Shown piece after piece: positions 42,101-45,100 of a DNA stretch of 64,000 nt. The stretch is from contig OZ252030.1 of the NCBI GenBank assembly GCA_965247305.1, positions 1,307,262 to 1,371,261 on the forward strand, read 5' to 3'. The number at the start of each line of letters is the position of its first letter. The stretch's first letter is position 1. Position numbers: made by a program. This stretch comes from Bryobacterales bacterium (lineage in GTDB: Bacteria > Acidobacteriota > Terriglobia > Bryobacterales > UBA6623).

Positions 42101-45100
42101 AGGCGGCCTTCAAGGGCTACTACGCCCCCTCCGCGGGTACTCGTTTTCCAGCCGTGTTGTGCACCTCTGTCAACGAAGAAGTCATTCACGGCATCCCTTC
42201 GAAGAAACGCATCCTCAAGGAAGGCGACATTGTCAAAGTCGACTGCGGCGTTCTGTTGAATGGCTACTACGGCGATTCAGCGACTAGCATCGCGGTTGGC
42301 AAAATCGCCCTGGCAACCGAGCGCTTAATGAAGGTCACCCAGGAATCACTGGCCCTCGCCATCGACCAAATGGTTAGTGGCCGCCGGCTGTTCGATGTCT
42401 GCGGAGCCGTCCAAAAGCATGTCGAGTCGAATGGCTATTCCGTTGTTCGCGAGTTTGTGGGCCATGGCATAGGAAAGAAATTGCACGAAGAACCGCAGGT
42501 GCCAAATTACGTAGACTCCAATGTCCGTAATCCTCGCCTGCGAGAAGGTATGGTGTTAGCGATCGAGCCGATGGTTGCGGCGGGAAAACCCGCGACGCAC
42601 GTCCTCTCTGACCGCTGGACGGCGGTTACAAGCGATGGCTCAAACGCCGCTCACTTTGAGCATTGCGTAGCCATCACCAACAACGGGCCGTGGATTTTGA
42701 CGGAAGTTTAAGTAAGAAAGATTCAGGAGGGAGATCGATTCAAGACAACGACCTAGCAACTGCCGAAACGCCTCAGAGCGGACGCCAAGTCGAAGGCATC
42801 ATCCAGCGCGAGCTGCCCGCTCGTCTCTTCGAAGTGGTGCTACAAGGCAAGCAAGTTGTGAAGGCAACCGTAACGGATCGAGCGACAAAAGATTTTTTAA
42901 GACTGCTTCCGGGGGACCGAGTTATCTTGACGCTCTCCCCGCAAGACGCGACCCGCGGACGCATCGTCGAACGGAAAACACTATGAAAGTTCGGGCATCA
43001 GTAAAGAAACTCTGTAAGAACTGCAAAGTCATCCGGCGGCAAGGGGTCGTCCGCGTTCTTTGCAGCAACCCCAAGCACAAACAAAGGCAGGGTTAAAGAA
43101 GGTTCACTATGGCGCGATTTGAAGGCGTAGACATTCCCGACAACAAGCGAGCGGAAATCTCGCTGACCTATCTCTACGGAATCGGAACGGCGCGGGCTCG
43201 CTCACTGCTGTACCGCGCGGGTATCGATTTCGGTAAGAAGATGGGCCAGCTCGAAGATCACGAGATTACCGCGCTGCGCAAGCTACTCGAAGACGAAGGC
43301 GCGGTCGAAGGCGATTTGCGCAAGGAAGTCTCGATGAATATCCGGCGGCTGATGGAGATCGGTAGCTACCGCGGCTTGCGTCATCGCCGCGGTTTGCCGG
43401 TCCGAGGTCAGCGCACGCACACCAACGCCCGTACGCGAAAAGGTCCGCGACGCGGTCAAGTTGCCAACAAGAAGAAAGCCGCCAAGTAATCGGAGCAGAT
43501 AAGGAAACATGGCAAAAACCAAAGGCAAAAAGAAAACCAGGAATCGGCAGAAGAAGAATATTCCTCTCGGAGTCGTCCACGTGCAGGCCACCTTCAACAA
43601 CACGATCGTTACGATCTGTGATGGCGAGGGTCAGGCAATCTCTTGGTCGAGCGCGGGTTCTCTCGGCTTCCGTGGTTCGCAAAAAGGTACTCCCTTCGCG
43701 GCACAGCAGGCGAGCATGACAGCCGTCAACGCCGCCAAGGAGCACGGTCTCCGAAAAGTCGCGGTCCGCGTGAAGGGTCCGGGTGGCGGCCGCGAATCCG
43801 CCATTCGCGCAATTACCGCGGCAGGCGTCCAAGTCACCCATATCCGCGACGTCACGCCGATGCCGCACAACGGTTGCCGGCCGCCGAAGAAGCGCCGGGT
43901 CTGAGGGAGCGAGAAGAACTTATGGCAAGAAATAGAGGTCCGGTTGTTCGCCGCTCGCGCCGCTTGGGAATGGCACTCGATCCCAAGTCCGAACGGAACC
44001 TAGACAGGCGTCCATACGCGCCCGGCCAACACGGCAAGACGCGGCGTCCGAAGAAGATGATCGGCTACGCCCTGCAACTGCAAGAGAAGCAGCGCGCCCG
44101 CTTTATGTATGACGTGCTTGAGCGCCAGTTCCGCAATTACTACAAGGTTGCGGCAAAAATGCCCGGCGTTGTCGGCGACAACTTGATGAGTTTTCTCGAG
44201 CGCAGGCTCGACAACGTTATCTTCCGGCTGGGATTCGCGCTTTCACGGCGCCAAGCCCGCCAGGCCGTAAACCACGGCCACATACAGGTTAACGGCCACA
44301 AGGTCGATATCCCGTCGTACCTGGTCAACCCAGGAGACATCATCGAACTGCGCGAGAAGAGCCGCAGGCACGGTGGCATCATCCTTGCCTTGGAAACCGC
44401 CGCTTCGATGTCTCAGCCGAGCTGGCTTGAGTCAGATCCGGAGAGCTTTCGAGGAACGGTCACCGGATCTCCCAGCAAAGAAGATGTCCAGATGACGAAA
44501 ATTAACGCCCAGCTTATCGTCGAACTTTATTCGCGGTAGATCAGCCCGCCTCCGGCGTCGGGGGCACAACCGGCGGCAAGCGTCTTCGCTCGCCGCCGCA
44601 GCTTGAAGAGAGGATTAGCGAATATGTGGAAAGGATTTCAGAAGCCCAAGCGCCTGGCCGTTGACGGGGATACCCTCGCGGATACGTTCGGGAAATTTAG
44701 CGCCCAGCCATTCGAGCGCGGCTTCGGTACGACGATCGGTAATTCCCTTCGCCGCGCGCTGCTGAGTTCGATCGAAGGCGCGGCGGTTACCGCCGTCCGC
44801 ATCGAGGGTATCTCCCACGAGTTCAGCCCGATTCCAGGTGTCGTCGAAGACGCCACCGACATTATTCTCAATCTGAAGCAGATCCCGCTCAAGCTCCACA
44901 CCGATAGCGCGCGAACGATCCGTCTGCGCGCGACCGAAGCCGGCGAGATCTATAGTTCAGCCATCGAAGCCGACTCCGAAGTCGCCATCCTCGATGACAG
45001 CGTATACATCGCAACCGTTAGCGAAGGCGGTGTGCTCGACATCGAAATGCGCGTCAAGCTCGGCCGCGGCTACGTCTCAGCCGAGAAAAACTTCGACGAA

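Follow-up and report, generated by a model that had tools for sequence, protein, structure and literature searches.

A divergent in-operon IF1 paralogue and a derived outside copy in Bryobacterales and other Acidobacteriota

The infA position of the ribosomal protein cluster

The window, that is, the whole stretch of 64,000 nucleotides analysed here (contig OZ252030.1, positions 1,307,262 to 1,371,261, of the Bryobacterales assembly GCA_965247305.1), contains the S10-spc-alpha ribosomal cluster, and the infA position of this cluster is occupied by a divergent IF1 paralogue, referred to below as the in-operon copy (Table 1). Its neighbours are presumably map, rpmJ and rpsM, names taken from sequence features and operon order. 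An earlier note on this DNA had placed an IF1-fold gene between map and rpsM, and this assignment was confirmed by the family profile, a structural model and a fold search, with rpmJ as the direct downstream neighbour, followed by rpsM. The in-operon copy passes the PF01176 cut-off of 30.2 with 40.2–40.7 bits, whereas the second IF1 gene of the genome (the outside copy) reaches 81.8 bits. With TIGR00008, the equivalog of functional IF1, it scores 53 bits, under the cut-off of 61.15; four other in-operon copies lie narrowly above that cut-off, at 66–74 bits. Its AlphaFold model (pLDDT 82, built from 58 homologues) is a five-stranded OB fold with a short helix, as in the IF1/eIF1A family, and the 12 best folds retrieved with it by Foldseek were all bacterial IF1 (TM 0.81–0.85). 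Its PDB sequence matches (12 sequences) were likewise IF1 only, as previously stated, and a Pfam scan returned no match to the cold-shock domain PF00313.

Table 1. Coordinates of the genes and features considered, in window positions unless a contig is named
Feature	Position	Strand	Remark
Divergent in-operon IF1 paralogue	42738..42986	+	82 aa from the likely ATT start
Alternative start of this gene, GTG	42690	+	98 aa; inside the 3' end of map
OB-fold core of this gene	42786..42974	+	PF01176 match
Shine-Dalgarno-like AGGAGG	42725..42730	+	7 nt before ATT 42738; from sequence and duplex energy
map, methionine aminopeptidase	41941..42711	+	Upstream neighbour
rpmJ (bL36)	42983..43096	+	Directly downstream
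rpsM (uS13)	43109..43489	+	Used as locus anchor
rpsL (uS12)	26132..26506	+	Protein partner of IF1 on the 30S subunit; TIGR00981, 227 bits
Outside (out-of-operon) IF1 copy	C1:259410-259601		PF01176, 81.8 bits

The ATT codon is the more likely start of the in-operon gene, because it is preceded by AGGAGG (predicted anti-Shine-Dalgarno duplex of -10.5 kcal/mol), whereas the GTG codon has no such sequence (-1.1 kcal/mol). A similar Shine-Dalgarno sequence with ATT is retained in the deletion remnant of one congener (G218), and this strong combination is seen in this genus only. The stop codon of the in-operon gene overlaps the ATG of rpmJ by 4 nt and the own Shine-Dalgarno sequence of rpmJ is weak, so translational coupling of the two genes is likely. 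Across the order, the same stop/start overlap is found in 29 of 58 loci, and an in-frame ATG candidate is absent in 25 of 58 in-operon copies, on which grounds the protein is probably made at a low level, coupled to map and often from a non-AUG start. Outside copies mostly start with ATG. A weak test for promoter-like sites upstream of the gene found none between 41200 and 43600, and codon adaptation (0.58 for the in-operon copy, 0.62 for the outside copy) was uninformative.

Such a start might suggest that the gene acts in cis as a sensor or autoregulator, its weak non-AUG codon tying its own translation and that of the coupled rpmJ-rpsM to initiation fidelity. The AUU start of infC is a precedent for translation that depends on initiation fidelity, and both the ATT behind a strong Shine-Dalgarno sequence here and the many order copies without an ATG candidate, next to outside copies that mostly have one, are consistent with such a role. 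On the other hand, the ATT with a strong Shine-Dalgarno sequence is confined to this genus, 33 of 58 copies do have an ATG candidate, half of the loci have no rpmJ overlap, and a function in cis does not explain the invariant arginines described below, which makes this explanation extremely improbable.

A programmed frameshift fusion of Map with the in-operon copy was considered and rejected: the -1 frame relative to map is used by 40 of 58 copies, but no shared slippery site is visible, and the excess of this frame arises because NTG codons overlap the end of map. In one genome (G251, locus L298) no stop codon separates Map from a divergent IF1 in the same frame, and the IF1 part is preceded by an internal Met; four other possible fusions proved to be overlaps in other frames. 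In the map-rpmJ gap of G050, G216 and G218 (L134, L247, L248) a short ORF survives that ends in IF1 C-terminal residues and overlaps the rpmJ ATG by 4 nt. These remnants suggest that translational coupling was retained, a result that is not significant, with about two independent events and a chance of 1/3 each.

Several other features of the region were observed. The adk gene is present in the window at 41189-41944, whereas many members of the host family f1 (L051, L057, L060, L134), including the small congeners, lack it at this position between secY and map. The ORF at the rpsC (uS3) position (33838-34863) has 341 codons, the usual length being roughly 230. Two copies of a sequence of about 40 nt, possibly an RNA gene or a repeat and visible as a peptide string that recurs in the translation, lie between a SurA-like gene and the next ORF (47385-47732). 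Beyond the ribosomal cluster, a DDE_3 transposase with HTH domains at 49796-50896 marks a downstream insertion sequence.

Distribution and history of the two copies

The order Bryobacterales was sampled with 61 genomes, including the present one, and all 57 weak second-tier PF01176 matches of the relatives were retrieved. Together with the copy in the window, 58 of 58 weak matches sit between map and rpmJ with intact reading frames, and neither map nor rpsM was found near any of the 36 outside copies examined; the weak copy thus always occupies the map-rpsM slot and the strong one never does (58/58 vs 0/36), as had been proposed. Among the remaining three genomes the slot is empty in G050 and G005, and G003 gave no rpsM. 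A strong outside copy accompanies the in-operon copy in 56 of 58 genomes and was not found in G021 (86% complete) or G033 (99% complete); in the latter, either the assembly has a gap or the in-operon copy is able to act alone. Named genomes scanned with a sequence pattern yielded 295 relatives, of which 80 were kept (labelled Bryobacterales, Bryobacteraceae, Solibacteraceae, Terriglobia, Acidobacteriota or Ca. Sulfopaludibacter), 78 of them with both neighbours. Within the host genus the in-operon copy is kept in only two of seven genomes, G217 carrying a broken remnant and four others gaps of 20–102 nt, so that the reported absence from five small congeners holds as an empty or broken slot in 5/7.

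The surroundings of the outside copies hold no interpretable conserved partner, and a cold-shock protein gene adjoins just one of 66. In G005 (L093) the sole IF1 gene lies directly downstream of a cold-shock protein gene, and G011 (L091, L092) has three IF1-family genes, namely two outside copies and a divergent slot copy. Directly upstream of the outside copy of the present genome (contig C1, L001:1783-2759), an RNA 3'-phosphate cyclase (RtcA) gene following an RtcB gene is split over two overlapping frames, owing to a frameshift or a sequencing error.

A single IF1 is present in most of the other families of the class, and 21 copies fetched from nine of these families are canonical and lie directly before rpmJ. 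Family f13 combines a mildly diverged slot copy with an outside copy, its sister f10 being canonical, and family f9 has an outside copy only, with an empty slot in 7 of 7 genomes checked. In a second class, the slot is canonical in 14 of 51 rpsM-anchored loci, divergent in 30 (among them one with a frameshift and one joined in frame to Map), empty in six and unresolved in one; a second copy is present in 29 of the 30 divergent genomes and absent in 12 of the 14 canonical ones. (The unpublished genomes G126, G154 and G177 were counted only in the IF1 copy tallies for other families and the second class.) The restriction of the pattern to one order was therefore too narrow a claim, since a further family of this class and a second class show it too. 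Degeneration took a different course in families f52 and f80 of that second class (L288-L297, L307), where the helix at positions 38–43 is several residues shorter and Y60 mostly kept. The ESM Atlas also lists IF1-family clusters from Acidobacteriota, Verrucomicrobiota, Myxococcota, Chloroflexota and phages, which are leads only.

A tree of neighbouring proteins from 94 selected loci requires seven changes between canonical and non-canonical slots, four of them forced by strong branches, and the divergent state therefore arose or reverted several times. On the same tree empty slots account for six changes, five forced by strong branches; the in-operon copy has thus been deleted at least five times independently, and with an outside copy present wherever checked, it is dispensable. 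The copy is indeed found at the slot in 58 genomes, as its proposed conservation across the order implied, but with these losses it is more dispensable than that proposal suggested; a functional IF1 is expected to be an essential, universal gene, whereas this slot is empty or broken in several lineages. In a tree of IF1 itself (25 of 58 in-operon and 16 of 36 outside order copies included), outside copies form one supported clade and divergent copies lie on one side of a long branch, the branch of the window's own copy being among the longest; an alignment of 66 columns, the long branches and an unsettled bootstrap prevent this tree from showing a single origin or separating duplication from transfer.

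All stages of a graded series are present: canonical copy only, canonical plus outside copy (G163, G225, G242), mild divergence (f13), strong divergence, broken gene (G217, G229) and empty slot. Such a series would be produced by slow displacement, in which the in-operon copy is a weakened IF1, by now partly redundant, that is gradually being lost and is kept for the time being because misfolding is selected against in a highly expressed operon and because translation has to be coupled from map to rpmJ. The rpmJ overlap in 29/58 loci would fit this explanation, as would the short ORFs left in G050, G216 and G218 (about two events, not significant). It is nevertheless unlikely on balance, given the pattern of conservation set out in the next section: pure decay is not expected to preserve surface arginines, and R46, R64 and R66 are invariant in 58/58 copies of 49% mean identity, other columns with Arg as the commonest residue retaining it in 18–46 of 58. 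The in-operon copies of the second class keep the same residues in 28 of 28 cases, beside outside copies that lack H35 and R66.

Conserved residues, selection and 30S contacts

Residues are numbered as in a 72-aa single-copy IF1 (Met = 1). At positions 43–51, 27 single-copy Acidobacteriota IF1s from the locus read N-F-I-R-I-L-P-G-D (N43 93%, F44 96%, R46 100%, L48 100%, P49 89%, G50 96%, D51 100%). The [DN]FxRLxPGD motif, which the earlier note had regarded as the paralogue's own, is consequently the ancestral motif of single-copy Acidobacteriota IF1, kept by the in-operon copy. The strong copy that the note had called canonical is present (81.8 bits) but is itself derived: F44 is replaced by R and the L17-P18-N19 loop by [HF]PG, so it cannot be regarded as simply canonical. 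The reported loss of GKxRK and SPYD applies in the order to R41 (kept in 4/58) and Y60 (1/58), but not to the whole of either motif, as G38 (33/58), K/R39 (31/58), S58 (76%), P59 (69%) and D61 (100%) are kept to varying degrees. In the present genome the in-operon core keeps P18, F44, R46, D61, R64, R66 and R70 and lacks K3, R23, H35, G38, R41, Y60 and Y69.

Losses in the two copies are complementary. In the order (in-operon copies n=58/outside n=36/single-copy n=27), K3 (1/35/26), R41 (4/36/27), Y60 (1/36/27) and Y/F69 (0/36/27) have gone from the in-operon copy, and L17 (49/0/27), N19 (17/0/27), R/K23 (50/0/26) and F/Y44 (58/0/26) from the outside copy. In the second class (in-operon n=28, leaving out the frameshifted and the Map-fused copy/outside n=20/canonical n=14), the in-operon copies retain P18, H35 and R66 (each 28/0/14) and have largely lost K/R39 (3/20/14), Y/F69 (0/20/14) and Y60 (7/20/14). 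As judged from these alignments, IF1 in several Acidobacteriota lineages is represented by two copies, each of which has lost the half of the conserved surface that the other retains. Since outside copies lack P18, H35, F44 and R66, these residues are not needed for the fold, yet the in-operon copy keeps them. Its core also stays positively charged, with a mean of +3.6 compared with +4.4.

The in-operon copy is under purifying selection. Pooled NG86 dN/dS over 45 disjoint pairs, some of them distant and near saturation, is 0.22 for its core (bootstrap 0.16–0.27), 0.15 for map and 0.12 for rpsM; in the nine pairs with both copies the ratio is 0.34 for the in-operon and 0.09 for the outside copy, corresponding to an approximately fourfold faster evolution of the former. 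With this ratio and intact frames in 58/58 order copies, a pseudogene was rejected. P18, F44, R46, V53, D61, R64 and R66 are invariant in the 58 copies, the three arginines being encoded across them by all six Arg codons. R64 and R66 are each kept in 78 of 79 further copies extracted from the pattern scan, a set selected on the 43–51 motif and hence no test of F44 or R46. Among 28 positions invariant in the 27 single-copy IF1s, the in-operon copy keeps five at >=95%: P18, R46, D61, R64 and R66. The idea of a maintained, non-canonical, IF1-like RNA-binding factor is thus upheld by purifying selection and by three invariant arginines, but not its description as neofunctionalised; a partition of old functions fits better, because the conserved motif is ancestral and the losses are reciprocal.

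According to passages of one source (bioRxiv 10.1101/2023.10.27.564398), IF1 contacts helix 44 through A16, P18, A20, R23, R41, R46 and R64, the 530 loop through K2, Y35, G38, K39, M42 and R66, and uS12 through A1, E3, Y60, D61 and R64. Excerpts of others state that the C-terminal Arg is essential in E. coli and that R64 disrupts the pairing of helix 44 (PMC4611024), and describe the short helix as critical for 30S binding (PMC10913371). All five invariant residues kept by the in-operon copy are on the bioRxiv contact list, which covers 11 of the 28 positions (post hoc hypergeometric test, p 0.005). At each 30S site roughly half of the listed contacts have gone, R41 and the short helix among them; K3, R41 and Y60, which belong to the contact set of functional IF1, are missing across the order, and the copy in the window also lacks R23, H35 and G38. 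No obvious change was seen by eye at the IF1-contacting positions of uS12 in the rpsL translation, and as regards co-evolution of the ribosome, nothing unusual was seen in the sequences of uS12 and of four short 16S motifs. Residues of the IF1-IF3 and IF1-IF2 contacts were not found in the available text of bioRxiv 10.64898/2026.06.26.734871, PMC5037330 and PMC11903750, whose figure supplements may hold them.

Retention of the helix-44 anchors without the residues of the productive interface might give the look of a competitor, and the earlier note had offered an IF1 antagonist as an example; a hibernation factor occupying the A site unproductively would be comparable. This suggestion found no support and is very unlikely, as the gene is embedded in the core operon of ribosomal proteins, no promoter-like site having been detected upstream of it (a weak test), and is thus probably expressed with growth genes, and as the loss of half of the contacts predicts weaker binding than that of the working copy.

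A role away from the 30S subunit has also to be considered, in which the in-operon copy has retained the CspA-like activities of IF1, RNA chaperoning and antitermination, with mRNA or nascent rRNA as its target. Parts of two publications report that E. coli IF1 shows both activities and complements a csp double mutant of B. subtilis (PMC3017892; PMC8956599). H35 is kept in 25/25 in-operon copies of family f2, 6/6 of f3, 5/5 of f13 and 28/28 of the second class and is lost in many outside copies. His35 of IF1 is reportedly needed for melting, a result attributed to Phadtare et al. 2007. However, only 8 of 27 copies in the host family have H35, the present one having Thr, and cold-shock domain genes occur in 15 of 15 genomes chosen as having the outside copy only and in 28 of 30 with the in-operon copy. 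Within the host genus the five smaller genomes (G050, G216-G219) have no cold-shock-domain match and the two larger have one each; this agreement with the in-operon copy (2/2 vs 0/5) is confounded with genome size, and the link, absent across 56 genomes, was rejected. A chaperone acting apart from the ribosome therefore appears quite unlikely.

A possible division of IF1 and its relation to known systems

Tentatively, and just short of probable, the in-operon copy is best explained as a subfunctionalised IF1 that likely binds RNA at the 30S decoding region in an accessory, dispensable role, with the outside copy likely carrying essential initiation. The latter part is very likely, because lineages with an empty slot show the outside copy only. 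A second IF1 with an xxGG loop and R at position 44 would first have been present elsewhere; the operon copy may then have lost its N-terminal Lys, the residues of the 38–43 helix, Y60 and Y69, while keeping L17-P18, R23, H35 (in most clades), F44, R46, D61, R64 and R66. It could dock through helix 44, uS12 and C519, more weakly than IF1 or on a different 30S state, and might serve a non-essential side role of IF1, for example in decoding-centre maturation or subunit recycling. Against such a role, P18 and D61 could be structural turn residues, half of the contacts are lost, the copy evolves fast and is often deleted, and R23 and H35 are absent here.

A bolder and somewhat doubtful proposal is that IF1 has two separable conserved jobs, split several times independently in Acidobacteriota: the outside copy would serve start-site initiation, and the in-operon copy would be a dedicated non-initiation 30S factor (in maturation, recycling or quality control), acting through a face of L17-P18, R23, H35, F44, R46, R64 and R66. 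Pairs of in-operon and outside copies would then amount to natural separation-of-function alleles for this factor. IF1 is a universal and essential protein whose side activities, such as recycling and RNA chaperoning, are hard to separate from initiation. Reciprocal-loss pairs in separate lineages may show which residues go with which job and provide ready-made test proteins; IF1 is already described, in the available part of one report, as dispensable for subunit joining in vitro (bioRxiv 10.64898/2026.06.26.734871). In these abundant soil bacteria the working initiation factor is probably not the copy found at the classic locus, and public pipelines label many relatives of that copy 'IF-1', which bears on the use of infA as a marker gene.

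In the literature searched, mostly outside subscription journals, neither IF1 pairs with reciprocal degeneration nor the Acidobacteriota pattern were found described, and the parts available of PMC11903750 and PMC3401457 do not mention such a pair. Second IF1 genes are already annotated elsewhere. An infA2 gene, likewise a second IF1 gene, appears in expression tables of Bordetella pertussis and Chlamydia trachomatis (PMC7742992, PMC5811630), in Bordetella listed between secY and rpmJ; the passages concerned give no functional or sequence divergence.

The N-terminal OB domain of RsgA (YjeQ), which acts on the 30S decoding centre according to an excerpt of PMC5499641, shows a weak fold match to the in-operon copy (E about 1e-3). 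The latter lacks the GTPase domain, and replacement of a missing RsgA was rejected because the genome encodes its own. With the CspA family it shares a small single OB fold with predicted RNA binding, and E. coli IF1 overlaps CspA in chaperone assays (PMC3017892, in part), but it has no CSD match and its presence does not track Csp genes. Its closest relative is bacterial IF1 (infA; TIGR00008, PF01176; PDB 1hr0 chain W, 4ql5, 3i4o), with which it has in common the OB fold, the ancestral locus, P18, R46, D61, R64, R66 and a basic face, and from which it differs in scoring under the TIGR00008 cut-off, in lacking K3, R41, Y60 and Y69, in being dispensable and in standing nearly always beside a second IF1.
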